From Thermoplasmatota archaeon (GTDB taxonomy: Archaea; Thermoplasmatota; E2; JACPAO01; JAHFTW01): DNA of 27,463 nucleotides. Position numbers and translations under genes: made by a program. Below the pieces are notes generated by a model. That model searched no databases. It was not told where the DNA came from and saw nothing but the letters and a program-made list of their open reading frames with translations. Positions within the stretch are counted from its first letter, which is position 1, and the number at the start of each line of letters is the position of its first letter. The DNA lies in NCBI GenBank assembly GCA_028289805.1, contig JANQNI010000073.1:1-27463 (forward strand), in the 5' to 3' direction. Of this stretch, positions 1,558 to 18,391 are shown piece after piece.

Positions 1558-2604
1558 CTACACTTCCCAGCGCGCCACCCGGAACGCCTCCCCCATCGCC
1601 GTCGGCAGCAGCAACTGCCGCAGCCGCAGGTACGCGGACGCCCCCTCCACCGTGGACCGGTCGATGCGGTTGAGGGCCTCCAACGCCCCGTGGCGCATCA
1701 GGAACGCCTCCTGGGACTCCTCGAACGCCAGCCGGAGCCCCGCCGCCTCCGCCCACGCCCGCGCCTGCGCGAAGTCGACGCTGGCCGTGATGTCCTGCTC
1801 CCCCGGCTCCAGCCAGGGATCCAGGCCGTGCCGGTGGCTGCGGAAGGTCCGCACGGTGCCGTCGCGGTCGCGGCGCCAGACGTGGTCTCCCCCGTAGTCC
1901 ACCACGAGCACGCCGCCGGCACGCAGTCGGGCGGCGACCGTCTCCAGCCACGCCTTCGCCGCGTGCATCACCGCGACGCGGCGGCCGGTGGGGACGCCGT
2001 CGGGGGCGAGGGCGGCCTCGTCCGGCGCCGGCCCACGCAGGAGCGCGAAGCCGCCGTCCTCCAGGCCGACGTGGAGTCCCCGCCAGCCGTCGTCGTGGCG
2101 TTCCAGCCACCAGAACGGCAGGGCGTCCAGGAACTCGTGGGCCACCACGAAGCCGGAGGTCCCCGCGGTCGGGAGTCCGTCCGTCCACGCGACGCGCTCG
2201 TCGGCGCCGGCCCGCTGGGCGTCCCGGTGCGTGGGGCTCGCCTCGACGTGCAGCCACCGCACCGCGGCGGCCAACTCCGGGTGGTCCTCGTCCAGGTGCG
2301 CCAGGGCGTCGCGGGCGAGGTCTCCCTCCCCGCCGCCGAACTCGTAGACGGGAAACGGCGCCGGGCGCCCGAGGCGCTCCCAGCACGCGGCCGCCTCCTC
2401 GGCGACGCAGTGGGCCAGGAACGGGTGCAGGGTGGGGCTGGTGGCGAAGTCGGCGTCGTCGCCGGGGCCGGTCTTGCGGCCGGGGCGCGTGTAGTACCCC
2501 CCGTCGGGGTCGTACAGGGCCGCCTCCATCCATGTGGGCCAGGGGAGGGGGCCCTCCCGTTCGATGCGGGCGCGGAGGCGGTCGGGGATGGCGGGGGCTG
2601 CCAC
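1558..2604 (-). CDS. Class I SAM-dependent methyltransferase, NDUFAF7/MidA (DUF185) family
   Basis: Family motifs in order: ALYDPDGGYY, DFATSP, EFGGGEG (SAM motif I), HEFLDALP, DYG, QDITASVDF, LLLPTAMGEAFRV. GTG start. Confidence 0.88.
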   Translation of the reverse strand: MAAPAIPDRLRARIEREGPLPWPTWMEAALYDPDGGYYTRPGRKTGPGDDADFATSPTLHPFLAHCVAEEAAACWERLGRPAPFPVYEFGGGEGDLARDALAHLDEDHPELAAAVRWLHVEASPTHRDAQRAGADERVAWTDGLPTAGTSGFVVAHEFLDALPFWWLERHDDGWRGLHVGLEDGGFALLRGPAPDEAALAPDGVPTGRRVAVMHAAKAWLETVAARLRAGGVLVVDYGGDHVWRRDRDGTVRTFRSHRHGLDPWLEPGEQDITASVDFAQARAWAEAAGLRLAFEESQEAFLMRHGALEALNRIDRSTVEGASAYLRLRQLLLPTAMGEAFRVARWEV

Positions 2605-2693
2605 AGGGTCTGCCAGGTTGGTGGCGTGATGAGCGTTTGCTCACCCCACAAGCGCGAGCGGTTTACAAACACTCTGATAGCCCCGAAATCTAC

Positions 2694-2737
2694 ATAGGGA
2701 TTTTTGCAAAAATAGCAATAGGGATTGTTGCAAAAAT
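2694..2737. promoter_or_regulatory. Tandem palindromic operator-like sites
   Basis: ATAGGGATT(T/G)TTGCAAAAAT occurs at 2694-2713 and 2718-2737 (19/20 identical). The core ATTTTTGCAAAAAT (2700-2713) is a perfect 14-bp palindrome; the second core (2724-2737) has one mismatch. Confidence 0.65.
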
Positions 2738-2777
2738 CATAGCGGTCGACTATATCGTAGCAATTTATTCCGCCTCC

Positions 2778-5700
2778 ATGGCCGAGGAGAAAATCCCCCG
2801 TTTGCTGGCATTCCGCGATTTGAGGGCCGGCGCTGCCGCTGCCATGTTCATCTTCCTCGCGTTCTCCGGGGTTGTCACCGCAGACGAACTGAATGGCTCA
2901 AACTACATCTACGGAGCAAATGATTATGTCTACATTTACTCCCAGGACCAAAGCAACGAGCATGCAATCGGCCAGAAGCTCAAGGTCGTGGATCACGGAT
3001 TCGACGTGGCCAAAGCCCATCACATCGCGCCTTTGATGTCGCGCACATCTTCTACCACCAGCGGCAACGTCTGCCTCGAGTTCGGTCAGCCCGGAAGCGT
3101 CCTCCAGAGCGAGTGTCGCCCCGTCACGGACGTCCCCACGTCTCCGGGCTGGCTCGACTTCTATTTCACGCCCCTCGTGAGCGTCACGCCGGGCGGTATC
3201 TACGAGTATTACGTCTACTATACCGGCACCTGCACAACCTGCGTGCGTGGGTATTATGCTACCACCAATGAGTACCTGCCTGGCGAGGGCAACAATGCCG
3301 TCCGACTCAGCAAGACCAGTCCCACCCAGGCCTACATCCACCCTGGCCAGGACTCCACGTTCCTGTTCTTCATCGCCCACTCTCCCATCACCGTCACCGA
3401 CTCGGCCACCAACATCGACCACGACAGTGCCACCCTGCGCGGCCGCAACACGGACGACGCGGACTACTACACGACCATCTACTTCGAATGGGGCACCACC
3501 AGCTCCTATGGCTCCACCACCGACTCCGTGCATTGCCCTGAGAGTACCACCGTTGCTTGCACGCGCAACATCTCGGGACTACAGTCCAGCACCACCTACC
3601 ACTACCGAATCTGCGGCAACAACGGCATAGGCACGCAGTGCGGGAGCAATCGGATGTTCACCACCGACCCCGCGCCCAACAACCCGCCCACTTCCATGTC
3701 TCCTGTCAGCCCCAGCGACGGGGCCACCGGGGTCTCCACCGGAACCTCAGTCTCCTGGGCCGGCGGCGACGACCCCGACGGTGTTACCTACGACGTCTTC
3801 ATACGGCCCGATGGCGGCAGCGACCGGCTTGCGTGCGACGGCACCGGTGCCAAAAGCTGTCCCAGCGCCGAACTGAACCTGCAACCCGGCACTACCTACA
3901 ACTGGTACGTGATTGCCCGCGACGGTCCCGGCGCGACCACGCGGGGTCCCTCCGGTAGCAACTATTGGAGCTTCACCACCAGCGGCTGTGATGCGTCCAA
4001 GGTCGTCCTGTGGCAGGCGGCCAACCAATCTGGTGGCTGCCGCTCCATCGACGCCGACGACGGGGACTTCCTCGGGGACACCTTCGACAACGGCGCCAGC
4101 CTCAACGACGCCGTCAGCTCCATCCAGGTGCCCTCAGGCCAAACCGCCATCCTATACGAACACAGCGCCTTCAGGGGCCAGTTGCATATCGTGGCCGCTT
4201 CCGATCCCAACTTGGACAACGACGGCTTCAACGACCGTGCCAGTAGCCTGCGCATCGTCCCGTGTGCTGGCGACGCCCCCGTCGTCCTGTTCTACGACCA
4301 CAACTACGAAGGCGGCTGCCTAGCGCTTCACGGGGACGACTCGGATTTCACCGACAACGTCTTCAGCAACGGCGCGGGCGTCAACGACGCCATCTCCAGC
4401 ATTTGGGTCCGTGACGGCTACCAGGCCACCCTGTTCCAGCACAACAACTACGGCGGCATCGCCCACACCACGTTGGGCAACGACAAGTCGCTCGTTGGCG
4501 AGGGCTTCAACGACCATGCATCAAGCATCCGCATCGAACTGCCCTCGCAGGCCCCTGCCAACGATCTGCACGCCCGCCCCGCCATCTTGGGTGAGGTGTA
4601 CGCGTACCATGCAGAGCAGTCCACTGTGGGTGCCACCACCCAGGGTGGCGAACAGACCGCCTGCAACAGTGCGACCCTCGGCGCTTCCGTCTGGTACAAG
4701 TTCACCGCCGTCACGAGCGGCACGGCCCGCATCACCACGTGGGGTTCCGACTTCGACACCGTCCTGGCGGCGTACGCTGGCACCGGCCTCGGTTCTACGC
4801 AGGTCGACTGCAACGACGACTCCGCAGGCACCACCCAGTCCGAACTCAATTTCCAGTGCGTCGCCGGCCAAGAGTACCGCATCCAGGTCGGTGGATACAA
4901 CGGGGCATCCGGCAACCTGGTCTTCCACATGACGGGTTGCATGGACTTCCGCGACGACCCCTTCGTCGCCACGCCGCGGCAGCCGTTTTGCGTCTCGAGC
5001 GACAACGAACCTCGCTTTGAGGTCGTCTACGCGTACGCCAACGATGCCCCGGACCTGTATGATCAACGCGTCGGTCGCATCCGCGAGATGATCCAAGAGG
5101 CCAATGGATTCTTGCACCAGGATGCCTCCACTCGAGATGGGCGCACCGTGGATTACCGCATCGGCTGCACCGGCGGTGTCATCGACGTCTTGAAGGTCGC
5201 CGTGGACATTCCCTCCAATGGCGACCTCCTCGGTGCTCTGCGCAACCACCCGAGTGGATTCAACGGCCCGAACGCCAAGTACTTGGTCTGGTTCGAGAAG
5301 AACCGAGAGTGTGGGTTCGGCTATGCCGAAACGGATCACGCGGGTAGCCCGTCGCCTGGGGATCTCCGAATGTTCTCTCCCGGCAATCCGTATGCCACCG
5401 CGCGTAGCTGGGCCGTCGTCGAATGCGACGACTCCTCTCACGGCGTCGCCGTGATGATGCACGAAGCCGGACATGCCATGGGTGCCGTCCACGACGATGC
5501 TCCCGACTCCGACGGTGCCGGTCACTGCACGGACAACCGAAGCATGCTGTGTGACAATGACAATCCCAACACAGGTGGATTCGCTTGCGCAGATCTGCAC
5601 TATGACTGCGGATTCGATTCGTACTTCGACCCCAACCCGGTACCTGATGAATGGCTCTTTGACAACTGGAATCAGGGCCACCCCTACAACGGATTCCTCC

Positions 5701-7829
5701 AATTCAACGCGGGCCCTGGCAACGACGCCTTCGACGCCCGTACGACCGTCTCGGCCCCCTACAGCCAGAGTCTGAGCACCCAGTTTGCCACGCACGAACA
5801 GGGCGAGCCCCAGCCCTCCTGCGCAAAACTGTCCAATACCGTCTGGTACCGGTTCACGCCCGATGCCAGCGGCACGGCGACGGTTTCCACAAGCGGGTCG
5901 AACTTCAACACGGTCGTCGCCGCTTACACGGGTTCCGGTATCGGGTCCTTGAGCCAGGTCGCCTGCGACGACGACGGCGGTTCGGGCACGACCAGTTCGA
6001 CCTCGTTCCCCGTGACTGCGGGGATTTCGTACGCTATCCAGGTCGGTGGTTTCGAAAACGCCCTCGGAGTCCTCCAGGTGCAGGTGTCGTGCAGCCCCCA
6101 CGATTGCAACACAGTCAACCAGGCACCCGACCAACCCTCCTTGTCCTGCACGCCCGACCCGAGCCAGGCCGGACAGACCGTAACGTGTACCTTCAAGAGC
6201 ATGGATGCTGACTCCAGCGGAGTTTACTACACCGTGAATTGGGGCGACGGCTCCTCCACCCGCGTACCGTCCAGCGGTACGGTAACCCCCAACACGGACC
6301 GGAGCGCGGACCATTCCTACTCGCTGGCTGGCACATACACGGTTTCGGTGACCGCCACGGACAACGGTGTCCCTGCCCAGACCTCGGCGGCAGCTACCCA
6401 CACCCAGGACGTGCAACTGGTCGTCAACCAGGCTCCCGGTGCCCCCAGCCTGTCATGCAGCCCCGACCCCAGCCTCACAGGCCAGATGGTCTCGTGCAGC
6501 TTCAGCAGCATGGACACGGACTCCACGGGCGTTTACTACGTCGTGGACTGGGGGGATGGCTCAGCCACGGCGCGCGTCCCATCTAGCGGCACCGCGATTC
6601 CCGGCACCAGTCGCTCCGCCAGCCACACCTACTCCACGGCCGGCGGATACACCATCAGCGTATATGCCACGGACAACGGTTCTCCCGCTGAGTCCTCTGC
6701 CGCCACCACGGAGGCCCAGACTGTCAACCAGGCCCCCGTCCCCATGCCGTACTCCATCGGATTCGACACGGGCAGTGCCACGGATTGGACCCTATCGGGC
6801 CTCTGGCACCCCACCACCTGCGTCAAGAACAGCCCGTCCTACAGCCTCGGCTACAACAAGGCCGGCTGTCCCACGGACTTCAACACCGGCTCCCGCACAA
6901 TGGGCGACGCGGTCACGCCACCCATCGTCCTTGGTTCCGGATCCACGCCGCACCTGACCTGGAACAGCTGGCACGAAACAGAGACTGGCGGCGCGTACGA
7001 CAAGAAAATCGTCTCCGTCTCCACCAACGACGGCGCCACGTGGACCCAGGTCTGGCAGGAGACTGGCACCCAGTCCACCTGGAACGCCCGCGACGTGGAC
7101 CTCTCCGCGTACGCCGGGCAGACCATCCGCGTCCGCTTCCAGTTCGACAGCATCGACTCCGCAATCAACACCGGTGACGGCTGGTACGTGGACGATGTAT
7201 CTGTCGCGAACCCGAGCTTCACGGTCCCGGACCCACCCCGCAACGTCGCCGCGGCGGCCGGCCCGGGCGTCGGGCAGATTCGCGTCACCTGGGATGCGCC
7301 CAGCAGCGACGGCGGCAGCGCCATCACCGGCTACAAGGTCTATGTCTCGACTTCGTCCGGCGGGCCGTTCTCCTTGGAGGCCACCGTTGGTTCGTCCACG
7401 TACTCCTACACGGACTCGAACCTTGGCAACGGTGCCACGCGCTATTACCAACTCAGTGCCGTCAACGCCGCCGGCGAAGGTACGAGGAGCAACACGGCCA
7501 GCGCCACCACGTGGACGACGCCCAGTGCTCCACGCCAGTTGGTGGCCGAGGCCGGTTCCGCCCTCGGCGAGGTGGACATCTCCTGGATGCAACCCTCCAG
7601 CACCGGCGGGACGACGCTCTCGTACTACCGCCTGTATCGGGCGACGGACTCCAGTGGGCCGTTCACGCACATCGCAAGTCCGTCCGGAACCTCGTACACG
7701 GACTCGGGTCGCACCTTGGCTACAGCATACTACTATCGCGCCATCGCAGTGAACGTGGTCGGTGCCGGGCCGGTTTCCAACACGGACTGCTCCATGCCCT
7801 ATCCGGAGCCGCCCCTCGGCGCTTGCTAG
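2778..7829 (+). CDS. Large secreted multidomain zinc metalloprotease/adhesin (1683 aa): signal peptide, FN3/Ig-like x2, beta-gamma-crystallin x2, PPC-like, metzincin-like catalytic domain, PPC-like, PKD x2, jelly-roll domain, FN3 x2
   Basis: ATG 2778 is followed by a basic/hydrophobic signal-like N-terminus ending VVTA|DEL. HEAGHAMGAVH at 5460-5492; four NDxxSS motifs; two WGDG PKD signatures; terminal FN3 repeats (W..PSS.GG..I..Y.VY). The ORF-track start at 2532 overlaps the divergent gene and was not used. Confidence 0.88.
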   Translation: MAEEKIPRLLAFRDLRAGAAAAMFIFLAFSGVVTADELNGSNYIYGANDYVYIYSQDQSNEHAIGQKLKVVDHGFDVAKAHHIAPLMSRTSSTTSGNVCLEFGQPGSVLQSECRPVTDVPTSPGWLDFYFTPLVSVTPGGIYEYYVYYTGTCTTCVRGYYATTNEYLPGEGNNAVRLSKTSPTQAYIHPGQDSTFLFFIAHSPITVTDSATNIDHDSATLRGRNTDDADYYTTIYFEWGTTSSYGSTTDSVHCPESTTVACTRNISGLQSSTTYHYRICGNNGIGTQCGSNRMFTTDPAPNNPPTSMSPVSPSDGATGVSTGTSVSWAGGDDPDGVTYDVFIRPDGGSDRLACDGTGAKSCPSAELNLQPGTTYNWYVIARDGPGATTRGPSGSNYWSFTTSGCDASKVVLWQAANQSGGCRSIDADDGDFLGDTFDNGASLNDAVSSIQVPSGQTAILYEHSAFRGQLHIVAASDPNLDNDGFNDRASSLRIVPCAGDAPVVLFYDHNYEGGCLALHGDDSDFTDNVFSNGAGVNDAISSIWVRDGYQATLFQHNNYGGIAHTTLGNDKSLVGEGFNDHASSIRIELPSQAPANDLHARPAILGEVYAYHAEQSTVGATTQGGEQTACNSATLGASVWYKFTAVTSGTARITTWGSDFDTVLAAYAGTGLGSTQVDCNDDSAGTTQSELNFQCVAGQEYRIQVGGYNGASGNLVFHMTGCMDFRDDPFVATPRQPFCVSSDNEPRFEVVYAYANDAPDLYDQRVGRIREMIQEANGFLHQDASTRDGRTVDYRIGCTGGVIDVLKVAVDIPSNGDLLGALRNHPSGFNGPNAKYLVWFEKNRECGFGYAETDHAGSPSPGDLRMFSPGNPYATARSWAVVECDDSSHGVAVMMHEAGHAMGAVHDDAPDSDGAGHCTDNRSMLCDNDNPNTGGFACADLHYDCGFDSYFDPNPVPDEWLFDNWNQGHPYNGFLQFNAGPGNDAFDARTTVSAPYSQSLSTQFATHEQGEPQPSCAKLSNTVWYRFTPDASGTATVSTSGSNFNTVVAAYTGSGIGSLSQVACDDDGGSGTTSSTSFPVTAGISYAIQVGGFENALGVLQVQVSCSPHDCNTVNQAPDQPSLSCTPDPSQAGQTVTCTFKSMDADSSGVYYTVNWGDGSSTRVPSSGTVTPNTDRSADHSYSLAGTYTVSVTATDNGVPAQTSAAATHTQDVQLVVNQAPGAPSLSCSPDPSLTGQMVSCSFSSMDTDSTGVYYVVDWGDGSATARVPSSGTAIPGTSRSASHTYSTAGGYTISVYATDNGSPAESSAATTEAQTVNQAPVPMPYSIGFDTGSATDWTLSGLWHPTTCVKNSPSYSLGYNKAGCPTDFNTGSRTMGDAVTPPIVLGSGSTPHLTWNSWHETETGGAYDKKIVSVSTNDGATWTQVWQETGTQSTWNARDVDLSAYAGQTIRVRFQFDSIDSAINTGDGWYVDDVSVANPSFTVPDPPRNVAAAAGPGVGQIRVTWDAPSSDGGSAITGYKVYVSTSSGGPFSLEATVGSSTYSYTDSNLGNGATRYYQLSAVNAAGEGTRSNTASATTWTTPSAPRQLVAEAGSALGEVDISWMQPSSTGGTTLSYYRLYRATDSSGPFTHIASPSGTSYTDSGRTLATAYYYRAIAVNVVGAGPVSNTDCSMPYPEPPLGAC

Positions 7830-7833
7830 CGGC

Positions 7834-7895
7834 CTTTCGTCCGTTTTTCCTTCCTCGGCACCTCCTTCTCCCCCTCGGTTCCTCCTTTGCCCCCC
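7834..7895 (+). terminator. Pyrimidine/T-rich terminator-like tract
   Basis: TTTCGTCCGTTTTTCCTTCCTC...CTCCTTCTCCCCTC immediately after the stop at 7829. Confidence 0.5.
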
Positions 7896-8017
7896 TTCGT
7901 CGAACCAGCCGTTGGATCCGTCCGACGCCGATGTCCATCCACTCGAACCGCCCCTCGCCTCATGGCAACGGATATATGTGGTCCCTTCTTGGGCGACCCT
8001 GGACCTGGGGTTTATAT

Positions 8018-8392
8018 ATGGTCTCCGTCGCTTCGGAATACGTCCCCTTGGCCATCTTGGGCGGGGTCTCCCTCCTGTTGGTCTTCGTCACGCTGCTGGG
8101 GAACCGCTTCATGGGTCCTCGCCGCGCCAGCGTCACCAAACTCACCAACTACGAGTGCGGTGAGAAGGCCACGCCTGGCGCCCGGGGCCCCATCGATGTC
8201 CAGTACTACATGTACATCCTGACGTTCCTCATCTTCGACGTCGAGGTGATGTTCCTGATCCCCTTCGCCATCAAGTTCCAGCACCTCGGTGTGGGCCCCA
8301 TCCTCGCCATCGCGTTCTTCGTGACGCTCATCCTGGTGGGCTACCTGTACGAGATCCGCAAGAAGCTCCTGAACTGGAGGTCCCTCGAATGA
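8018..8392 (+). CDS. nuoA: NADH-quinone oxidoreductase subunit A
   Basis: [11 protein letters not shown]..., [44 protein letters not shown] overlap with nuoB. Confidence 0.93.
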
Positions 8393-8976
8393 GCGACGAA
8401 CCGACCCCCGCCACCACCGTGGAGCAGGCGGACGCCGACATCCCGGAGTACGACCCCGAAGCGCACGCGGACGTGCCCAAGATCCCCATCGTCGTGGAGG
8501 AGCAGCAGGAGGGCATCGTCCTGACGGTCCTCTCCAAGGCCATCAACTGGGGCCGCAGCAACAGCCTCTGGCCCTTCGGCTTCGGCCTGGCCTGCTGCGC
8601 CATCGAGATGATCTCCACGGTGGCAACCCCCAACCACGACATGAGCCGCTTCGGCAGCGAGGTCATGCGCGCCTCGCCCCGGCAGTGCGACCTCATCATC
8701 GTCCCCGGCACCGTCACCAAGAAGATGGCGCCCCGCATCAAGAACCTCTGGGAGCAGATGGCGGAGCCGAAGTACGCCATCGCCATGGGTGCCTGCGCCA
8801 TCAACGGCGGCCCCTACCAGGACTCCTACTTCGTCGTCAAGGGCGTGGACAAGATCATCCCCGTCGACGTCTACATCCCCGGCTGCCCGCCGCGGCCCGA
8901 GGCGCTGCTGGACGGCCTCCAGAAGCTGCAGCAGAAGATCCGCGACCAGAACGACACCCTGGAGTTGGGCTTTTGA
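8389..8976 (+). CDS. nuoB: NADH-quinone oxidoreductase subunit B
   Basis: [47 protein letters not shown] (cluster N2 ligands). Confidence 0.97.
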
Positions 8977-9524
8977 GCGACGCTGAAGCCACGCTGGCAC
9001 CCACCGGCGACCACGCCGTCCTCGCCGAGGCGTGCCCCGACGAGGTCACCGGCTACGCCCAGACCGAGGACGGTCACGGCATCACCGAGGTCCGCCCAGA
9101 CGGCCTGTTCACCGTCGCCCGGCACGTGAAGAAGCTGGGCTACCGCATCCTGAGTTGCCTGTCCGCCTACGACACCAAGAAGATGGGCAGCGGCGTCTTC
9201 TACGCCTTCGTCAAGCCCGCCGCCTACCCCGAGGAGTTCGGGGACCTGCGGCTTCGCGTCCCCCTCACCTTCGAGGAAGAGGGCAAGGAGGTGCAGGTGC
9301 AGAGCCTCTGCGACGTCTTCCCGGCCGCCGGCTGGCACGAGCGCGAGATGTACGACATGTACGGCGTCCGGTTCGAGGGCAACCCCGACCCGCGCCGCAT
9401 CTTCCTGCCCGACGACTGGAAGGGCTTCCCCATGAGGTTGGACGACAAGCAGCCCGAGCAGTTCGTCGCCATGCGCGACGGCGAGGACGTGACCGTGCAG
9501 ACCCAAGAGGAGGGGTCGTGGTGA
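8973..9524 (+). CDS. nuoC: NADH-quinone oxidoreductase subunit C
   Basis: [43 protein letters not shown]. Start at TTG 8973, overlapping the nuoB stop (TTGA), with GGAG upstream. Confidence 0.92.
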
Positions 9525-9594
9525 GCGCAGCGAACCACGGCCTGGATTCCTGCATGAGCGGGAGCGAAATGCTGGAGGAGGGGTCCTGGTGAGC
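9507..9594 (+). repeat. Intercistronic element 1: 20-bp direct repeat (68-bp period) enclosing a 23-aa mini-ORF at 9521-9592
   Basis: GAGGAGGGGTC(G/C)TGGTGAGC at 9507-9526 and 9575-9594. Mini-[26 protein letters not shown] has GTGA overlaps with both nuoC and nuoD. Confidence 0.8.
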
Positions 9595-10797
9595 ATCGAC
9601 TACGCCGCCGCCGTCCCCCCCACCTACGACGCCCCCAGCGTCGTCGGGATGCACAAGGTCGACGACCGGCACCTGATGGAGCTCAACATGGGCCCCCAGC
9701 ACCCGTCGACCCACGGCGTGCTGCGCCTGAAGCTCCTGCTCGACGGCGAGATCGTCGAGAGCGTCGAGCCCATCATCGGCTACCTGCACCGCGGCAGCGA
9801 GAAGCTGGCCGAGGGCATGAACTGGACCAAGTTCATCCCGCTGACGGACCGCATGGACTACCTCTCGGCCATGAACAACAACCACGGCTACGTCCTGGCC
9901 GTGGAGGAACTCCTGGGCGGACCGGACGCGGGCGTCGTCTCCGAGCGCGGCGAACACCTGCGCGTCTTCGCCGCCGAGATGAGCCGCCTGGCCAGCCACC
10001 TCCTGTGGATGGGCACCTTCTTCATGGACCTGGGCGCCATCACGCCCATCTTCTACGCCCTGCGGGAGCGCGAGACGGTCCTCGGGTTCCTGGAGGAGCT
10101 GTGCGGCGCCCGGCTGACCTTCAACTACATGCGCATCGGGGGCGTCAAGTACGACCTGCCCGACGACCCCACGTACCTGCCCCGCGTGCGGGAGTTCATC
10201 AGCAACTTCCCGGCGCAGGTGGACGAGTTCGAGCGCCTGCTGAAGCAGAACGACATCATCGTCGCCCGCCTCAACGGCACCGGCCCCCTGAGCCGCCAGG
10301 ACGCCCTCGACTGGGGCGTCACCGGCCCCATGCTGCGCGCCACCGGCATCGCCCACGACCTGCGCAAGGTGTCCCCCTACAGCATCTACCCCAGCCTCGA
10401 CTTCGACGTGCCCACCACGACCCAGAGTGACTGCTACGGTCGCCTCATGGTCCGCTGGGCCGAGATGGTCCAGACCTGCCGCATCCTGGAGCAGGTCATC
10501 GACCGCCTCATGAACAAGCAGCTCGACGGCCTGCACCTCAACCCCGCCTACGCCGGCGGCAAGATGCTGCGCATCAAGGCCAAGGGCGAGGCCTACGCCC
10601 GCATCGAGCAGCCCAAGGGCGAGTACGGCGTCCACGTCATCGGCGACGGTGGCCTCAAGCCGGCCCGCGTGCACGTGCGCGCGCCCAGCTTCGCCAATTT
10701 GCAGGTCCTTCCCCTGATGGCGCGCGGCCAGAAAATCGCCGACTTGATCGCCAGCCTGGGAAGCATCGACATCGTCCTGGGGGACGTGGACCGCTAG
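9589..10797 (+). CDS. nuoD: NADH-quinone oxidoreductase subunit D
   Basis: LNMGPQHPSTHGVLRL, IGYLHRGSEK, DRMDYLS, RLASHLLW, GPMLRATG, ASLGSIDIVLGDVDR. Confidence 0.97.
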   Translation: MSIDYAAAVPPTYDAPSVVGMHKVDDRHLMELNMGPQHPSTHGVLRLKLLLDGEIVESVEPIIGYLHRGSEKLAEGMNWTKFIPLTDRMDYLSAMNNNHGYVLAVEELLGGPDAGVVSERGEHLRVFAAEMSRLASHLLWMGTFFMDLGAITPIFYALRERETVLGFLEELCGARLTFNYMRIGGVKYDLPDDPTYLPRVREFISNFPAQVDEFERLLKQNDIIVARLNGTGPLSRQDALDWGVTGPMLRATGIAHDLRKVSPYSIYPSLDFDVPTTTQSDCYGRLMVRWAEMVQTCRILEQVIDRLMNKQLDGLHLNPAYAGGKMLRIKAKGEAYARIEQPKGEYGVHVIGDGGLKPARVHVRAPSFANLQVLPLMARGQKIADLIASLGSIDIVLGDVDR

Positions 10798-10813
10798 GAG
10801 ACAGGAGGATTCC

Positions 10814-11866
10814 ATGGCTACACTCACCGACTTCTTCGACTCCGTCCTGCCCGGCACCCCCGGCTGGGTCGACAGCACCGTCGCCGCCCTCGTGGGCAGC
10901 CTCATCGTCTTCACGGTCGTGCTGTCCATCGGCGGCCTGTTCACCTTCGCCTTCCGGCGCATCTTCGCCCGCATGGGCCGCCGCCAGGGCCCCAACCGCG
11001 TCGGCCCCGCCGGCATCCTCCAGTTCGTCGCCGACGGCATCAAGCTGATCTCCAAGGAGGACATCCGGCCCGCCAAGGCCGACCGCCTCGCCTGGGGCCT
11101 CGCCGTCTACGTTGCCGTCACCTTCACGGTCCTCGCCTGGGCGCCCCTGCCCTGGAGCGACCAGATCTTCTTCAGCAACGTCGGCACCGGCGTCCTGTTC
11201 ATCCTCGCCGCCAGCGCCATCGCTCCCCTTGCGGAGATGATGGCCGGCTGGGGCAGCAACAACAAGTACAGCCTCTTCGGCGGCGTGCGCGCCGCGGCCC
11301 TGGACGTCAGCTACGAGATTCCGCTCATCTTCGCCGTGGCCAGCGTCATCCTGATGGTCGGCACCCTGGACACCCAGAGCATCGTCACCTCGCAGGCGGG
11401 CCTCTGGTTCATCGTGCCCCAGATCGTCGGCTTCGTCATCTTCTTCATCACCGGCCTGGCCAAGGCCGGCCTGGTCCCCACCGACCTGGCCGAGTCCGAG
11501 TCGGAACTGGTGGCCGGCTTCACGACGGAGTACTCCGGCATGCGCTTCGGGTTCTTCTTCGTCGTCATCTTCAGCAACGTCTTCTTCCTCGCCGCCCTGA
11601 TTACCATGCTGTACCTGGGCGGCTGGCAGGCACCCTTCGGCACGCTCGTCCCCGTCCTCCAGGGCTTCCTGGGGCCGTTCACGGGCGTCTTCTGGTTCCT
11701 GACCAAGGCGCTGCTGATGTGCTTCGTCATCTTCTGGATCTGGACCACGCTCCCGCGGGTCCGGGTGGACACCTACCTCAACGTCGCGTGGAAAGTCATG
11801 CTCCCCATCAGCATCCTGAACTTCGTTGGCACCGCCGTCCTCGTCAAGCTGGGGGTGGTGGGCTGA
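10814..11866 (+). CDS. nuoH: NADH-quinone oxidoreductase subunit H
   Basis: RRIFARMGRRQGPNRVGP.G.LQ..ADGIKL..KE, SYEIP, DLAESESELVAGFTTEYSG, PRVRVD. SD GGAGGA upstream. Confidence 0.96.
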   Translation: MATLTDFFDSVLPGTPGWVDSTVAALVGSLIVFTVVLSIGGLFTFAFRRIFARMGRRQGPNRVGPAGILQFVADGIKLISKEDIRPAKADRLAWGLAVYVAVTFTVLAWAPLPWSDQIFFSNVGTGVLFILAASAIAPLAEMMAGWGSNNKYSLFGGVRAAALDVSYEIPLIFAVASVILMVGTLDTQSIVTSQAGLWFIVPQIVGFVIFFITGLAKAGLVPTDLAESESELVAGFTTEYSGMRFGFFFVVIFSNVFFLAALITMLYLGGWQAPFGTLVPVLQGFLGPFTGVFWFLTKALLMCFVIFWIWTTLPRVRVDTYLNVAWKVMLPISILNFVGTAVLVKLGVVG

Positions 11867-12294
11867 TGAAGGTCCCCATCGCACCCATCCTGCAAGGCAT
11901 GGGCGTCACCCTCAGCAACTTCGTCAAGAAGCCGGTGACGGTCGCCTACCCCGAGCAGAAGCAACCGGTGGCCGACCGCTTCCGCGGCCGCATCTACCTC
12001 AAGCTGGAGACCTGCATCGGCTGCACCCTCTGCGCCCAGGCCTGCCCCAACGGCTCGTGCTACATGGTCGACTACGACCCCGGCTTCGAGACGCCGCAGA
12101 ACAAGCGCCAGAAATTCCCCGCCGTCGAGATCAGCAAGTGCATGTACTGCTCGCTGTGCGAGGAGGCGTGCCCCACCGACAGCATCCGCATGGGCAAGGA
12201 GTACGAGACCGGCGCCTACGTCCGGGACTTCGACTACAAGCCCGACCGCCTGAGCCAGAACGAGGCCGCACTCGGAAGGGGGCCGTACAAGTGA
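11866..12294 (+). CDS. nuoI: NADH-quinone oxidoreductase subunit I (2x[4Fe-4S])
   Basis: TVAYPEQK...RFRGRI, CIGCTLCAQACP and CMYCSLCEEACP. TGATG overlap with nuoH. Confidence 0.96.
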   Translation: MKVPIAPILQGMGVTLSNFVKKPVTVAYPEQKQPVADRFRGRIYLKLETCIGCTLCAQACPNGSCYMVDYDPGFETPQNKRQKFPAVEISKCMYCSLCEEACPTDSIRMGKEYETGAYVRDFDYKPDRLSQNEAALGRGPYK

Positions 12295-12554
12295 TCGGAG
12301 ACCAGATCGCCTTCGCCATCATCTCGTTGATGATCCTCGCCGGCGGCCTGTTCGCCGTCACCGCCAAGCGCACCTTCCACAGCGCCATGGGCCTCGGCCT
12401 CGCCCTCGTGGGCGTCGCCGCCGTGTTCATCCAGCTGGGCAGCCCCCTCGTGGGTGTCCTGCAGGTGCTCGTGTACGTGGGCGGCATCCTGACCCTGTTC
12501 GTCTTCGCCGTGATGTTCGTGGCCGGGGACGAGGAAGACGTGGAGGTGTTCTGA
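12291..12554 (+). CDS. nuoJ: NADH-quinone oxidoreductase subunit J, N-terminal part (J1)
   Basis: FHSAMGLGLAL...LQVLVYVGGILTLFVFAVM. GTG start overlapping the nuoI stop; 87 aa. Confidence 0.9.
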   Translation: MIGDQIAFAIISLMILAGGLFAVTAKRTFHSAMGLGLALVGVAAVFIQLGSPLVGVLQVLVYVGGILTLFVFAVMFVAGDEEDVEVF

Positions 12555-12637
12555 TGAGCGAAACGCGAAGCAGAACGCCTGAGCGAAGCGAGGGACCCTC
12601 CGGGGCTCCCCGAGCCCCGGACGGGGAGGTGTTCTGA
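12542..12637 (+). repeat. Intercistronic element 2: 13-bp direct repeat (83-bp period) enclosing a 27-aa mini-ORF at 12554-12637 and a 10-bp GC hairpin
   Basis: GGAGGTGTTCTGA at 12542-12554 and 12625-12637. Mini-ORF MSETRSRTPERSEGPSGAPRAPDGEVF*. Stem TCCGGGGCTC-CCC-GAGCCCCGGA at 12599-12621. Confidence 0.82.
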
Positions 12638-13006
12638 ATGGACAAGCGCATCGCGGCCGCCGTCGCCTTCGTCGCCTTCGGCACCATCGCCATCGCCGTC
12701 ACCCAGACCGCCCCCTGGTACGAGGAGGGCGTCGGCGGCGCCGAGACCTACGACGCCATCGTCCAGGACCTCTTCACCGACCACGTCATCGCCCTCGAGG
12801 TGCTCGGCGTCCTGCTGACGGCCGCCATGATCGGCGCCCTCGTCGTCGCCCGCCCCCTCACCGGCGGCGCCGACACCGCCAACTACCCCAAGGCGGACGA
12901 CGAGGACCTGGAGAAGGCCCGCGGCGTCAGCGACGTGGCCGCCACCCTGGGCGCGCCCGTGCCCGTCAGCCAACTGCTCCCGCCCGCGGAGGACGAGGAG
13001 GAATAG
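12638..13006 (+). CDS. nuoJ: NADH-quinone oxidoreductase subunit J, C-terminal part (J2)
   Basis: LFTDHVIALEVLGVLLTAAMIGALVVAR matches the NuoJ C-terminal LF..Y...FE...LLL.AMIGA motif. SD GGAGGTG upstream. Confidence 0.88.
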   Translation: MDKRIAAAVAFVAFGTIAIAVTQTAPWYEEGVGGAETYDAIVQDLFTDHVIALEVLGVLLTAAMIGALVVARPLTGGADTANYPKADDEDLEKARGVSDVAATLGAPVPVSQLLPPAEDEEE

Positions 13007-13008
13007 CC

Positions 13009-13311
13009 ATGCTCCCGGTAAGCTACTACGTCATGCTCGCGGGCGCCCTGTTCGCCCTCGGCCTCTACGGCCTCCTGACCCAGCGCAGCGCGCTGCGGCT
13101 CCTGATCAGCGTCGAACTGATCCTGAACGCCGCGAACATCAACTTCGTTGCCTTCGCCAACCACCTCGGCCAGAGCGACGGCCTGGCGTTCACCCTGTTC
13201 GTGATCGCCTTGGCCGCCGCCGAGGCCGCCGTCGGCCTGGGCATCTTCCTGCACCTGTACCGCCACGTCCGCACCGTGGACGTCGAGAAGACCGCGGCCC
13301 TGAGGTGGTAA
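13009..13311 (+). CDS. nuoK: NADH-quinone oxidoreductase subunit K
   Basis: LISVELILNAANINFV, ALAAAEAAVGLGI. Confidence 0.96.
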   Translation: MLPVSYYVMLAGALFALGLYGLLTQRSALRLLISVELILNAANINFVAFANHLGQSDGLAFTLFVIALAAAEAAVGLGIFLHLYRHVRTVDVEKTAALRW

Positions 13312-13312
13312 C

Positions 13313-15316
13313 TTGGCCGAAACGCACGCAACCGGACTCGAACAGCTTGCCGGCGTCGACCTCGCCGCCGCCATCCTCATCGTCGCCCTGCCCCTGGTCG
13401 CCAGCCTCGGCATCTTCCTCTGGGGCAAGACCAAGTGGCGCGGCGGCGGCGCCGTCGCCGTGGCCGCCACGGGCGCCGCCATCGTGCCCGCCCTGTGGTT
13501 CTTCGTCCGCATGCTCCAGGGTGGTGCGCCCACCGGCTGGAGCATCGAGTGGTTCACCGTCGGCGAGTACACCTTCACCGTCGGCTTCCTGCTGGACAAC
13601 CTCAGCGTCTGGCTCACCACCCTCGTGACGGTGCTGGTCTTCCTCATCACGCTCTTCTCGACGCACTACATGCACGAGGAGCCCAACGAGAAGCTGCGCC
13701 GGTACTACGCCGCCAAGATGCTCTTCGCCACGGGCATGCTCGGCACGGTGCTGATGGACAACTACCTCCTGATGTTCATCTTCTGGGAGATCATGGGCCT
13801 GTGCTCGTACCTCCTGATCGGGTACTGGTACCACAAGGACAGCGCCGCCACCGCCGCCAAGAAGGCGTTCCTGACCACGCGCCTGGGCGACATCCTGCTG
13901 ATGGTGGGCATCATCATCCTGCTGGTGACCTTCAAGACGCTCAGCTACCGCGAGATCTGGCACCACCCCGAGTTCACCGCCGACAACCCGGCGCTGTTCT
14001 GGGCCGCCCTGCTGATCTTCGGCGGCGCCGTGGGCAAGAGCGCCCAGTTCCCCCTGGACATCTGGCTGCCCGACGCCATGGAGGGCCCCACCACCGTCTC
14101 GGCGCTCATCCACGCCGCGACGATGGTCAAGGCCGGCGTGTTCCTGGTGGCGCGCAGTTTCCCGCTGTTCGTCCTCAACCCGGACACCTTCCTCGTCGTG
14201 GGCATCATCGGCGGCGTCACCGCGCTCTACACCGCCAGCATGGCGCTGGTGGCCCTGGACATCAAGCGCGTCCTGGCGTTCTCCACGCTCTCGCAGTTGG
14301 GCTACATGTTCCTGGCCCTGGGCGCCGGCGGCATCGTCTACGTCCAGGCCCAGAACGGCATCGGATTCACCGCCGCCATGCTGCACCTGATGAACCACGC
14401 CTTCTTCAAGGCCCTCCTGTTCCTTGGAAGCGCGTCGGTCATCCTCGGCATGCACCACCACCAGGACCTGCGCGAGATGGGCGGCCTGCGCCACAAGATG
14501 CCCAAGACGTACTGGACCATGATGGTCGGCACCCTCGCCATCGCCGGCATCATCCCCTTCAGCGGCTTCTGGTCCAAGGACGAGGTGCTCGCCACCGCCT
14601 TCAAGGCCGGCAGCTACGCGGGCGTCTTCACCCTCCTGTGGGTCATGGGCCTCCTGACGGCCCTGATGACGGCGTTCTACATGTTCCGCATGATGTACCT
14701 CGCCTTCCACGGCGAGGCGCGCACCAAGCACGCGGAGCACGCCCACGAGAGCCCCGGCGTCATGACCGGCCCCCTCGTCGTGCTGGCCGTCTTCGCCGCC
14801 GTCGCCGGCCTCTGGCTCGTCACGCCCATGGCCGGCGGCTTCGAGGCCGTCATCACCTACCCGTACAGCGAGGACCTGGGCCACCCCCACCACGAGGAGC
14901 CCTTCGCGCTGCTGGTGAAGATCCTCACCGAGCCCAAGACGTACCTCAGCCTCGGCGTCGCCGTCGCCGGCATCGCCCTGGCCAACAAGTACCGCAAGGG
15001 CCTGCCCGCCAAGGAGGCCGAGGAACCCACCAGCGGCTTCCGCGGCCTGCTCTACAACCGCTACCACGTCACCCGGGCCGTCTACGAGCCCCTGGGCAAC
15101 GTCGTCGGCGTGGGCCTCGCCAAGCTCAGCGACCTCTTCGACCGCAAGGCCATCGACGGCGCCGTCAACGGCGTCGCCCGCGTCACCTGGTGGAAGGGCG
15201 GCTGGCTCCGCCGCTGGCAGGACGGCCGCGTCACCACCTACGTCGCCACGCTCGTCGTGGGCCTCACCCTGCTCTTCGCCCTCATGACCGCCCTCGTCCC
15301 CTCCATCCGGTGGTGA
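13313..15316 (+). CDS. nuoL: NADH-quinone oxidoreductase subunit L
   Basis: FWEIMGLCSYLLIGYW, KKAFLTTRLGD, GKSAQFPL..WLPDAMEGPTTVSALIHAATMVKAG, HAFFKALLFL. TTG start with SD GAGGTG. Confidence 0.96.
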   Translation: MAETHATGLEQLAGVDLAAAILIVALPLVASLGIFLWGKTKWRGGGAVAVAATGAAIVPALWFFVRMLQGGAPTGWSIEWFTVGEYTFTVGFLLDNLSVWLTTLVTVLVFLITLFSTHYMHEEPNEKLRRYYAAKMLFATGMLGTVLMDNYLLMFIFWEIMGLCSYLLIGYWYHKDSAATAAKKAFLTTRLGDILLMVGIIILLVTFKTLSYREIWHHPEFTADNPALFWAALLIFGGAVGKSAQFPLDIWLPDAMEGPTTVSALIHAATMVKAGVFLVARSFPLFVLNPDTFLVVGIIGGVTALYTASMALVALDIKRVLAFSTLSQLGYMFLALGAGGIVYVQAQNGIGFTAAMLHLMNHAFFKALLFLGSASVILGMHHHQDLREMGGLRHKMPKTYWTMMVGTLAIAGIIPFSGFWSKDEVLATAFKAGSYAGVFTLLWVMGLLTALMTAFYMFRMMYLAFHGEARTKHAEHAHESPGVMTGPLVVLAVFAAVAGLWLVTPMAGGFEAVITYPYSEDLGHPHHEEPFALLVKILTEPKTYLSLGVAVAGIALANKYRKGLPAKEAEEPTSGFRGLLYNRYHVTRAVYEPLGNVVGVGLAKLSDLFDRKAIDGAVNGVARVTWWKGGWLRRWQDGRVTTYVATLVVGLTLLFALMTALVPSIRW

Positions 15317-15321
15317 ACTGA

Positions 15322-16821
15322 ATGGCCACGCTCGAACTCCCCGGACTCATCCCCTACACGCTGCTTGCGACCCTCGTCGCCGGCTTCCTGGCGTGGCGGG
15401 CGCCCAGCGCCAACGCCGCGCGCCGCATCGCCCTGGTCGGCTCCCTGCCCGCCGCCTTCGTCACCACGCTCATGTTCGCCCGCGTCGGCGTCACGAGCGG
15501 CGGCGACTACCAGTTCGTCACCGACTGGACCTGGGTCGAGGGCCTCGGCATCAGCCTCAGCTTCGGCGTCGACGGCCTGTCGGCGTCCCTGGCGTGGCTG
15601 ACGGCCATCCTGACGCCCCTCGTCATCCTCTACTCCTGGAAGGAGAGCCACCGGCCGCAGTTGTTCTTCGGCCTGCTGATGCTCCTGAACACGGCCGTCA
15701 TCGGCGTCTTCACCGCCCTCGACCTGTTCCTGTTCTACATCTTCTGGGAGTTCGTCCTGATCCCGATGTACTTCCTCATCGCGATCTGGGGCGGGTCCAA
15801 CCGCCGCTACGCGAGCATGAAGTTCGTCGTCTACACCGGCGGCGCCAGCCTCGTGATGCTGCTCGGGTTCATGGCCGCCTACTTCGGCGCCGGCCTCGGC
15901 ACCTTCCACATCCCGACCCTGACGGCCGTCGGCAGCCAACTCGGCTGGGCCCGCGACTTCGGCATGGTCGTCTTCGGCGTGCTGGCCTTCGGCTTCCTCG
16001 TCAAGCTGCCCGCCGTGCCCTTCCACACCTGGCTCCCCGACGCCCACGTCCAGGCCCCCACGGCCGGCTCCGTGATGCTGGCGGGCGTCCTGCTGAAGAT
16101 GGGCAGCTACGGCCTCATGCGCATCGCCTTCCCGCTGTTTCCTGAGGCGGCCATGGCCTACCAGTGGTTCCTCTTCGTCCTCGGCACGGTGGCGGTGCTC
16201 TACGGTGCCTTCCTGTGCCTCGCCCAGGACGACCTGAAGAGCCTCATCGCGTACTCGTCCGTGTCGCACATGGGCATGATCACCATCGCCCTGGCGACCT
16301 TCAACGACCTCGGCTGGGCCGGCGCCGCCTACATGAACGTCGCCCACGGCATCATCAGCGCGGGCATGTTCATGGCCGCCGGCAGCCTCCAGCACAGCAC
16401 CGGCACCCGCCTCATCAGCCGCCTCGGCGGCGTGGGCGTCAAGACGCCCAAGCTCGCCGCGCTCACCGCCGCGCTCTTCCTGGGGTCCCTGGGCCTGCCC
16501 GGCATGATGGGCTTCATCGCCGAGTTCAACATCTTCGCCGCCGTCTGGGAGGCCTTCGGCTGGTGGATCATGCTGCCCGTCTGGTCGGTGCTGGTCACCG
16601 CCGGGTACTACCTCTGGGCCCTCCAGCGCGCCTACTACGGCAGCGAGCGCCGCCACAGCGAGGTCGACTGGGACCGCATCCACGACGTCACCCCCGAGGA
16701 GCAGGCCCCCATGGTCGCCATGGTGCTCCTGGCCATCCTCTTCGGCGTCCTCCCGGCCCTGCTGCTGGGACAGATGAACGACTGGACCGGAACGGTCCTC
16801 GCCCTCATGGGAGGCAACTAA
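15322..16821 (+). CDS. nuoM: NADH-quinone oxidoreductase subunit M
   Basis: FYIFWEFVLIPMYFLIAIWG, VKLPAVPFHTWLPDAHVQAPTAGS..LAGVLLKMG, IAYSSVSHMG. Confidence 0.96.
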   Translation: MATLELPGLIPYTLLATLVAGFLAWRAPSANAARRIALVGSLPAAFVTTLMFARVGVTSGGDYQFVTDWTWVEGLGISLSFGVDGLSASLAWLTAILTPLVILYSWKESHRPQLFFGLLMLLNTAVIGVFTALDLFLFYIFWEFVLIPMYFLIAIWGGSNRRYASMKFVVYTGGASLVMLLGFMAAYFGAGLGTFHIPTLTAVGSQLGWARDFGMVVFGVLAFGFLVKLPAVPFHTWLPDAHVQAPTAGSVMLAGVLLKMGSYGLMRIAFPLFPEAAMAYQWFLFVLGTVAVLYGAFLCLAQDDLKSLIAYSSVSHMGMITIALATFNDLGWAGAAYMNVAHGIISAGMFMAAGSLQHSTGTRLISRLGGVGVKTPKLAALTAALFLGSLGLPGMMGFIAEFNIFAAVWEAFGWWIMLPVWSVLVTAGYYLWALQRAYYGSERRHSEVDWDRIHDVTPEEQAPMVAMVLLAILFGVLPALLLGQMNDWTGTVLALMGGN

Positions 16822-16822
16822 C

Positions 16823-18391
16823 ATGGTCAGCTTCAACGACGTCCTGCGGTGGATCACGCCCCCCCAGGACTGGCAGGTCCTCACGCCCGACTTCGTCGTG
16901 CTCCTGTTCGCCCTCCTGGCGCCCCTGCTGGCGCTGTGGGACACGGACCGCCGCGGGATGCAGCAGTTCACCCTCATCGGCCTCGGCGGCGCCTTCCTGC
17001 TGACCCTCGGGAGCCTCCTCGGGTGGAACCAGGGCATCTTCAGCCTCGACTACATCGCCTGGAGCGCCCAGAGCGCCGCCGCCGGGCACTACGTCACGGA
17101 CGCCTTCCGCGTCACCGAGATGAGCCAGACGCTGAAGCTCCTCTTCCTCGGCGTCGCCTTCCTGGCCGTCCTGGGCGCCGGTCGCCCCCTCAAGCAGAAG
17201 GGCATCTCCGGCCGCGCCGAGGAGGACCACGGCGAGTTCCACAGCCTCATCCTCTTCGCCACGCTGGGGATGATGATCGTCGCCTCCGCGCAGGAACTGA
17301 TCGTGCTCCTGCTCGGCATCGAGGTCGCCTCCATGAGCAGCTACCTCCTGGCCGCCTTCCGCCGCGACCGCGACGGCGCCGAGGCCAGCATGAAGTACTT
17401 CCTCGTGGGCGCCGCCAGCAGCGCGTTCACCATCTTCGGCATCAGCCTCGTCTACGGCATGGCCGGCACGACGCACATCCCCACCCTCGGCGCCACCCTC
17501 GTCACCGGCGGCGCCTTCGACGCCGTCAGCTTCGTCGCCATCCTCCTCGTGGGCGCCGGCCTAGCCTTCAAGGTCAGCAGCGTGCCCTTCCAGATGTGGG
17601 CCCCCGACGTCTACTACGGCGCCCCCGTGCCCGTGGCCGGCATGCTCGCCAGCGCCTCCAAGGCGATGGGCTTCGTGGCGGTCTTCAACGTCTTCCTGGT
17701 CGGCTTCTTCGGCCTGAAGGCCAACTGGGAGCTGGCGCTGGCCGCCATCGCCGTCGCGACCATGTTCGTCGGCAACCTCGTGGCGCTCCAGCAGGACAGC
17801 ATCCGCCGCATGCTCGCCTACAGCAGCATCGCCCAGGCCGGCTACCTGCTCATCGCCGTCGTGGTGGGCACCCAGTACGCCGTCGGCGGCGGCATCCTGC
17901 ACCTGCTGACCAACGCCGCCATGAAGCTCGGCGCATTCCTCATCGTGGGCGCCCTGATCTACAGCGGCGTCCCCGACCGCGTCGACGGCTGGAAGGGCCT
18001 CGGCAAGCGCAACGGCTTCCTCGCCCTGGCCATGACCATCTTCCTGCTGAGCATGGCCGGCCTCCCGCCCCTGGGTGGCTTCACGAGCAAGTTCGTCCTG
18101 TTCAGCAGCGCCGTCGACGTCGGCATCGTGCAGAAGCTCGGCTGGCTCGTGTGGCTGGCGGTCTTCGCCGTGGTGAACTCGGCCATCTCCCTGTTCTACT
18201 ACTTCCGCGTCATCCGTGCCATGTACGTGGAGGAGGGCAGCGAGACCGAGCGCGTGCTGGTTGGCCCCGGCGTCCGCGTGGCCGTCGGCGCCTGCGCCGC
18301 GCTCGTGCTGCTGGTCGGGTTCTACCCCGCCTGGTTCGTCGACGCCGCCATGGCGGCGGCCGGCGACCTGCTGAGCTTCCGGGCGCCGTAG
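16823..18391 (+). CDS. nuoN: NADH-quinone oxidoreductase subunit N
   Basis: EASMKYFLVGA, AFKVSSVPFQMWAPDVY.GAP, RRMLAYSSIAQAGY, AGLPPLGGFTSK, SLFYYFRV. Confidence 0.96.
   Translation: MVSFNDVLRWITPPQDWQVLTPDFVVLLFALLAPLLALWDTDRRGMQQFTLIGLGGAFLLTLGSLLGWNQGIFSLDYIAWSAQSAAAGHYVTDAFRVTEMSQTLKLLFLGVAFLAVLGAGRPLKQKGISGRAEEDHGEFHSLILFATLGMMIVASAQELIVLLLGIEVASMSSYLLAAFRRDRDGAEASMKYFLVGAASSAFTIFGISLVYGMAGTTHIPTLGATLVTGGAFDAVSFVAILLVGAGLAFKVSSVPFQMWAPDVYYGAPVPVAGMLASASKAMGFVAVFNVFLVGFFGLKANWELALAAIAVATMFVGNLVALQQDSIRRMLAYSSIAQAGYLLIAVVVGTQYAVGGGILHLLTNAAMKLGAFLIVGALIYSGVPDRVDGWKGLGKRNGFLALAMTIFLLSMAGLPPLGGFTSKFVLFSSAVDVGIVQKLGWLVWLAVFAVVNSAISLFYYFRVIRAMYVEEGSETERVLVGPGVRVAVGACAALVLLVGFYPAWFVDAAMAAAGDLLSFRAP

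Follow-up and report, generated by a model that had tools for sequence, protein, structure and literature searches.

What does an archaeon do with a very large extracellular protein in which a predicted zinc protease sits in the middle of a long string of binding modules? The question is raised by a gene at positions 2778-7829 of contig JANQNI010000073.1 (assembly GCA_028289805.1), which comes from a metagenome-assembled genome (MAG) of a Thermoplasmatota archaeon and which was analysed at its full length of 27,463 nucleotides (nt), hereafter the window. The gene is intact: from the ATG at 2778 it encodes 1683 amino acids (aa) and it stops at 7829 on the forward strand, on which all the domains described below also lie. 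We favour, with a probability of roughly 70%, the reading that its product is a Sec-exported, disulfide-rich and Ca2+-stabilised modular metzincin, which its accessory modules keep attached to protein or glycoprotein that is particulate or bound to a surface. Catalysis would be carried out by the mid-chain metzincin domain: its likely zinc ligands are His895, His899 and His916, and Glu896 would act as the general base. The other modules, namely a lectin-like N-domain, four FN3 domains, two crystallin domains, the flanking PPC domains, a PKD pair and a MAM-like jelly roll, would hold the enzyme on an insoluble or surface-bound target made of protein or glycoprotein (for instance detritus, mucus or other cells), and they would also stabilise it outside the cell. 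It is probable that the gene itself came by transfer from a different lineage of Thermoplasmatota. The fold, the conservation of the motif, the set of domains, the rarity of the architecture and the indel at the locus are shown by the analysis; export, the binding of zinc by His916, proteolysis and the class of substrate are inferred.

An initial annotation, made from the letters of the sequence, had described a 1683-aa open reading frame (ORF) that carries this series of domains, with a central catalytic domain bracketed by a pair of PPC-like ones. All the listed domains are indeed present close to where they had been placed, with boundaries within a few residues, according to the searches of Pfam, NCBIfam and the PDB sequences on which our domain calls are based, and the protease does lie between two PPC-type domains, at aa 591-722 and 976-1110.

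The catalytic domain belongs to a large and mostly unnamed family

The catalytic domain extends from 4944 to 5702 (aa 723-975). When aa 715-985 were searched with HMMER against 1.8 billion cluster representatives, 1975 clusters were retrieved at E<1e-3 and 849 at E<1e-10, with matches that span the whole catalytic domain at 30-39% identity. An alignment of 90 family sequences was used for the structure model, for the Pfam check of the relatives and for all the column counts given below. The model (predicted local distance difference test, pLDDT, 89.2; predicted template modelling score, pTM, 0.89) is confident through the active-site helix (aa 887-900), and in it the domain adopts the three-dimensional fold of the metzincins. 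A Foldseek search of the model against the PDB returned OgpA, ADAMTS-4/5, fragilysin, archaemetzincin, adamalysin II and ADAMs, and among the clusters of the AlphaFold Database it reached template modelling scores of about 0.7 with proteins automatically named M43 or M12B-like. The folding of the HExxH region as a zincin had been set beforehand as one of two checks on which the initial annotation could fail; by the model and by Foldseek, this region folds as a metzincin.

Sequence models recognise the domain much less readily. The Pfam model Reprolysin_5, whose cut-off is 27, gives 23.1 bits when run on the full protein and 27.7 bits once the domain is excised, and it covers only some 40 residues around HExxH. 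A weak match of the same kind is found in 40 of the 90 relatives, which have no other Pfam match. A profile search against the PDB sequences reached at best an E value of 0.05, with snake-venom proteases. In NCBIfam, CpaA, Mep72 and snapalysin came up far below threshold and were rejected, which leaves the domain with no NCBIfam model, and a search of the literature for a named family with such a catalytic domain found nothing specific. Judged by its sequence, the catalytic domain is thus a member of a large family that lies on the border of the reprolysin-like models of Pfam and that is for the most part unnamed. There are about 2000 clusters that combine a confident metzincin fold with the lack of the textbook third His, and they are essentially unnamed in Pfam and NCBIfam. 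Characterising one member would annotate the whole family, and would provide a further example of a zinc ligand that has changed its place.

An unusual architecture shared in part with two proteins

In nearly all members of the wider family, the catalytic domain (about aa 60-330) comes directly after the signal peptide and is followed by PKD, Calx-beta or Ig modules. Among the 150 best family representatives it starts at about residue 60-140, and the only exceptions are the present protein, in which it starts at residue 715, and HUR63291.1, in which it starts at residue 427. A core made of the N-domain, FN3, PPC, protease and PPC is common to three MAG proteins only, namely these two and MEA3200562.1, and the full string is found in none besides the present one. 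The three form one clade in a tree of 162 catalytic domains (Shimodaira-Hasegawa-like approximate likelihood ratio test, 99). More generally, a survey of the class detected family members in 15 of 197 species genomes, often in several copies, all within one order and with at most 37% identity, and none was detected in two genomes of the same genus as the source.

In a length-matched search with aa 590-1110, MEA3200562.1, a protein of 1515 aa from a Thermoplasmata MAG, is alone in covering the whole PPC-protease-PPC unit. It is 47% identical over aa 30-1110, with the same order of N-domain, two FN3, two crystallins, PPC, protease and PPC, and it shares the C-terminal tail. It differs in that extra FN3 repeats stand where the PKD pair and the MAM-like domain stand here, in an Asn at the canonical third-His position and in its genomic context. 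Its public name is 'trimeric autotransporter adhesin'; this is probably an automatic mis-annotation, since Pfam sees in it only FN3, crystallin and PPC-like domains, and no autotransporter domain. HUR63291.1 (823 aa, from a Thermoplasmatota MAG) represents the minimal core and is 48% identical over the PPC-protease-PPC part. Unlike the present protein, it is devoid of the second FN3, the crystallins and the C-terminal extension, and it carries a Lys and a 5-residue insert at the canonical third-His position. The initial annotation would also have been contradicted by an architecture that is already common and annotated. It is not common: these two partial relatives, annotated as 'trimeric autotransporter adhesin' and 'hypothetical protein', are the only ones found. 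From the comparisons made, the exact domain string is unique so far.

A zinc site with a probably displaced third ligand

The motif of the family is HExxHxxGAVQ, then 10 residues, and then HCxDGxDxMCY. The present protein reads HEAGHAMGAVH at aa 895-905, of which HEAGH (aa 895-899) is encoded at 5460-5474. H895, E896, H899, G902, H916 and C917 are invariant in 90 out of 90 members. His905 (5490-5492), by comparison, occupies the canonical third-His column, where Q is found in 69 members and H in 2, and where the two closest relatives have the N and the K mentioned above. His916, which together with Cys917 is encoded at 5523-5528, is located on a loop, 11 residues past the canonical position. 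Because column 905 varies in this way while His916 is invariant, the third zinc ligand is likelier to be His916 than His905. A precedent is given by AMUC_1438, whose third zinc His (H233) likewise does not belong to the canonical metallopeptidase motif and sits on a loop, over a Met-turn (PMC9513282). The HExxHxxGxxH motif from which the protease had initially been recognised thus stands for its HExxH and Gly part, and does not stand for its final His, which is not part of the zinc motif of the family.

D919, conserved in 87 of the 90 sequences, is kept, as are all six family-conserved Cys. One extra pair brings the catalytic domain to an even count of 8 Cys, which is consistent with disulfides. 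The Cys counts in PPC 1 (4) and PPC 2 (4) are even as well. With the catalytic Glu, both helix His, His916 and the six conserved Cys all present, an active enzyme is to be expected.

Several observations weigh against this expectation, or against the broader reading of an exported and active enzyme. The wider family, in which MAG proteins from Actinomycetota are among the named members, shares the invariant His, Glu, Gly and Cys residues and keeps Q905, D922, M924 and Y926. Within the three-member clade, Q905 is replaced by H, N or K; column 922, which is D in 87 of the 90 sequences, is S in all three proteins; and column 926, Y in 82 of them, is D in all three. The Met-turn column 924 is M in 84 sequences and L in the remaining 6, and the present protein has Leu924, with Met923 adjacent. 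The clade also stands on a long branch, without an informative sister in the tree. Away from the active site, the cleavage site of the signal peptide was read by eye from the sequence, and among the public sequencing runs no RNA run that holds the gene is on record. Given its long branch and its substitutions in columns 922, 924 and 926, the clade may have an altered specificity or, with less likelihood, may have become inactive.

These changes are also what gives some substance to the possibility that the protein is mainly an adhesin or a surface-matrix protein, in which the metzincin would be a degenerate pseudo-protease retained as one more binding module. Such a view would suit a protein in which 11 of the 12 domains are binding or spacer modules, whose clade has lost D922, Y926 and the Met at 924 on a long branch, and whose nearest relative has an NCBI name that includes 'adhesin'. 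It nevertheless appears unlikely to us. HExxH, G902, the invariant H916-C917 and the six conserved Cys are all retained, the model is confident through the active-site helix, and the Leu of the Met-turn column is found in those six family members. In other metzincins, substitutions of the Met-turn Met lower the stability rather than abolish the activity. Moreover, modules such as PKD, FN3, PPC and MAM-like domains are usual in secreted proteases, and we have therefore counted them in favour of the modular metzincin.

A bolder version of the modular metzincin can be formulated from the same data. In it, the protein would belong to an uncharacterised metzincin family in which an inserted loop, 11 residues further downstream, has taken over the third ligand (HExxHxxGAVQ-x10-HC). 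In the small Thermoplasmatota clade, this domain would have been captured between two PPC domains and re-tuned near the metal (S922, L924 and D926), and the coral-associated archaeon would thereby have obtained a protease directed at host mucus or at glycoproteins. Taken as a whole, we hold this version to be doubtful.

Comparison with characterised metalloproteases

The last element of that proposal comes close to another explanation, which overlaps with the favoured one, namely that the protein is a glycoprotein-specific, mucinase-like O-glycopeptidase of a coral-associated archaeon, acting on host mucus or on glycosylated cell-surface proteins. The best structural match of the catalytic domain is AMUC_1438, which, like OgpA, is an O-glycopeptidase of Akkermansia. 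The hallmark of this type is a glycan-recognising pocket and cleavage N-terminal to an O-glycosylated Ser or Thr. OgpA is called unclassified in MEROPS, and AMUC_1438 has no MEROPS hits (PMC9513282). The coral metagenome from which the genome comes and the lectin- or carbohydrate-binding-module-like look of the N-domain both go in the direction of a mucinase. However, the core metzincin fold alone aligns with these enzymes, over 183 of 374 residues and at 9-13% identity, and the beta-sandwich that forms the glycan pocket of OgpA and AMUC_1438 is not part of the present catalytic domain. Furthermore, the gap in Z score to ordinary metzincins is small, and the genome has its close relatives in samples of sand and not in hosts. 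A dedicated mucinase is thus quite improbable.

The adamalysin/reprolysin group (MEROPS M12B; Reprolysin_2 to Reprolysin_5) is no closer than 17% identity, and its signature His-Asp is not conserved in the present family. No M12B prodomain, cysteine switch or disintegrin domain was found by Pfam or from the even Cys counts, and it is a PPC domain that directly precedes the catalytic domain.

In terms of overall design, the closest parallels are the M6 proteases of the InhA/PrtV type and the M4 proteases of the vibriolysin type, which likewise combine a secreted zinc protease with PKD, PPC or MAM-like modules; the MAM-like domain of the present protein even matches an InhA-type model. In those enzymes, the catalytic families are different (gluzincins or M6) and the PPC domain is only found C-terminal to the catalytic domain, whereas here the protease is central, with a PPC domain on each side. 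The design principle is a familiar one, that of a secreted zinc protease with PKD, PPC, FN3 and MAM sandwiches, and the atypical detail is the PPC copy that is N-terminal to the protease.

The accessory domains

The N-domain (2883-3392, aa 36-205) is lineage-specific. It has no Pfam family even at E<=10, and a search with aa 30-300 against 5.8 billion proteins returned FN3 matches only, none of which names it. Its AlphaFold model, built from three sequences, is an all-beta sandwich of only moderate confidence (pLDDT 69.5). The leads from the ESM Atlas (DUF4082, Lectin_like and PHR) were all below 0.9 and were not accepted, and only a generic beta-sandwich can be claimed from the model. It is followed by two FN3-like domains (3393-3986, aa 206-403), the first of which is of the PhoD_N or purple-acid-phosphatase-N type.

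Two beta-gamma-crystallin domains come next (3987-4547, aa 404-590). As an excised piece (aa 400-595), the pair gives 54.3 bits with PF03995 (Inhibitor_I36) and 48.8 bits with PF00030 (Crystall), and its matches among the PDB sequences include Protein S and clostrillin. The Ca2+ motif N/D-N/D-x-x-S/T-S is found as NDAVSS, NDRASS, NDAISS and NDHASS at aa 443, 485, 536 and 578, so that there are two motifs per domain and each of the four Greek-key motifs carries one. The region thus has the features of a microbial Ca2+-binding beta-gamma-crystallin, and these four canonical motifs support the Ca2+ stabilisation proposed in the initial annotation. PF03995 is the family of SMPI, the metalloproteinase inhibitor of Streptomyces, and the pair might accordingly serve as an internal inhibitor under which the protease stays latent before processing. 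The 54 bits of PF03995, the lack of any detected prodomain or unpaired Cys for a cysteine switch and the add-on nature of the crystallins, which are missing from the short relative HUR63291.1, would fit this. We nevertheless hold it to be very improbable: what PF03995 picks up is mostly the beta-gamma-crystallin fold of microbes in general, the targets of SMPI are M4 enzymes of the thermolysin type and it is not known to inhibit metzincins, the four Ca2+ motifs are intact and indicate the structural, Ca-binding role that is usual for such domains, and a whole PPC domain lies between the pair and the protease.

The two PPC-type beta-sandwiches that flank the protease are at 4548-4943 (PPC 1) and at 5703-6107 (PPC 2). 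The first has weak PF04151 and PF23759 matches, and the second is 46% identical to the first. With PF04151, both are under the cut-off of 25.9 (19.2 bits for PPC 1 and 9.8 bits for PPC 2). Hundreds of proteins have domains that carry PF04151 or PF23759 and to which the two sandwiches show 35-50% identity.

Downstream, two PKD domains (6108-6737, aa 1111-1320; 61.9 bits for a cut-off of 23.5) are joined by VNQAP linkers. They are a recent tandem duplication, in which the two copies share 68% of their residues and 73% of their DNA positions. The MAM-like, or choice-of-anchor-J, jelly roll (6738-7214, aa 1321-1479) is supported by NF038128 (32.1 bits, cut-off 30) and by PF20773 (31.6 bits on the excised piece, cut-off 26.9). 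Two further FN3 domains (7215-7787, aa 1480-1670; 46.7 bits for a cut-off of 25), found in the Pfam and PDB sequence searches, close the string and are 57% identical to the terminal FN3 pair of MEA3200562.1.

Gene start, export and C-terminus

The longest open frame of the locus is 2532-7829 on the forward strand. The start at 2532 was rejected, since the alignments with homologues begin around the product of the ATG at 2778 and since the 82 extra codons, which are Gly/Arg-rich, overlap an AT-rich promoter region as well as the methyltransferase gene that points the other way. The ORF is far beyond what chance would give, as it stays open over 5 kb in DNA of 65% GC and has homologues at 47-57% identity.

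The protein begins with a probable signal peptide (2778-2882, aa 1-35), made of a basic n-region and a hydrophobic core (aa 17-33), with a predicted cleavage after VTA (VTA|DE). The mature protein would be acidic, of about 174 kDa and with an isoelectric point of about 4.4. The signal peptide, the 38 Cys of the whole protein and the fact that the signal peptide is its sole hydrophobic stretch all support the secretion that had been proposed initially, and we infer that export goes through Sec.

The C-terminus is a Cys-bounded tail, CSMPYPEPPLGAC, which with the stop codon occupies 7788-7829 and is conserved in MEA3200562.1. The protein ends in ...PYPEPPLGAC, and the pattern C-x-x-PYP-x(0-2)-PLG-x-C is common to these two proteins only. 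This tail could be a small disulfide loop. That it is a shared sorting signal was rejected, as no other ORF of the genome ends alike. No PGF-CTERM or transmembrane segment is found at the C-terminus, nor any hydrophobic stretch after the signal peptide, and the protein does not look like a substrate of archaeosortase A. The genome does encode archaeosortase A (C342:1012-1959, reverse strand) and at least one ORF with a PGF-CTERM-like end, a large one of 1632 aa on contig C105 that finishes in ...PAGFVALVALAAAVLVRRRM. Lipid anchoring is thus available in this archaeon and seems not to be used by the protease, which lacks the signal. Without a membrane or PGF-CTERM anchor, the protein would be either released or retained non-covalently by its binding modules.

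The locus, its acquisition and its source

The window is one whole contig of the MAG, which amounts to 1.73 Mb in 379 contigs and is about 80% complete. The neighbours of the protease gene are an AI-2E transporter, a divergent methyltransferase of the MidA/NDUFAF7 type (PF02636; 1558-2604, reverse strand), which adjoins it, and then the nuoA-N operon (8019-18391, forward strand). By blastn collinearity and tblastn synteny, the gene forms with its own promoter and terminator regions a block of 5.36 kb (2586-7944). In a same-genus genome (G138, 93% complete), which is collinear with the window on both sides of the block, the methyltransferase and the nuo operon are only about 130 bp apart and the block is missing: the syntenic MidA-nuoA spacer has 65 bp in its place (L021 4243-4307). 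In addition, the G+C content at third codon positions is 0.81 in the protease gene, versus 0.88-0.98 in the clearly coding neighbours. Because the block is absent from the same-genus genome and the third-position G+C content is lower, the gene is considered accessory and was probably acquired horizontally as a single-gene block. No synteny with the loci of MEA3200562.1 and HUR63291.1 was found, and there are no convincing flanking direct repeats or mobile-element traces at the borders of the block. It can also be noted that, in the stretch from the AI-2E transporter to the methyltransferase, it is G138 that is the longer, by about 1.5 kb (L021 1564-3069, versus 1292-1439 in the window).

In the AT-rich spacer upstream of the start, two 20-nt direct repeats, ATAGGGATT(T/G)TTGCAAAAAT (2694-2737, forward strand), are spaced by 24 nt, and each of them has a palindrome centred on TTGCAA. 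They are possibly the site of a regulator (operator) or a promoter element. The ATG is preceded, at a distance of about 25 nt, by a TATA-like CTATAT, an arrangement compatible with a leaderless transcript, and the region downstream of the gene is T-rich.

The only public sequencing run that contains the complete gene is labelled as a coral metagenome, and two further runs of the same study hold 12-15% of the words of the gene. For the housekeeping genes, the closest named relatives are in MAGs that bear the name 'Thermoplasmatota archaeon' and were obtained from sand samples. The protein would thus add an extracellular factor for protein degradation or attachment, strain-variable and probably acquired, to an uncultured, coral-associated lineage of Thermoplasmatota. 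Finally, G138 has no such protease and contains two very large ORFs, of 1618 and 1141 aa (C13:5915-11227), with weak beta-gamma-crystallin-like matches, so that giant secreted proteins with crystallin domains may be a habit of the lineage.

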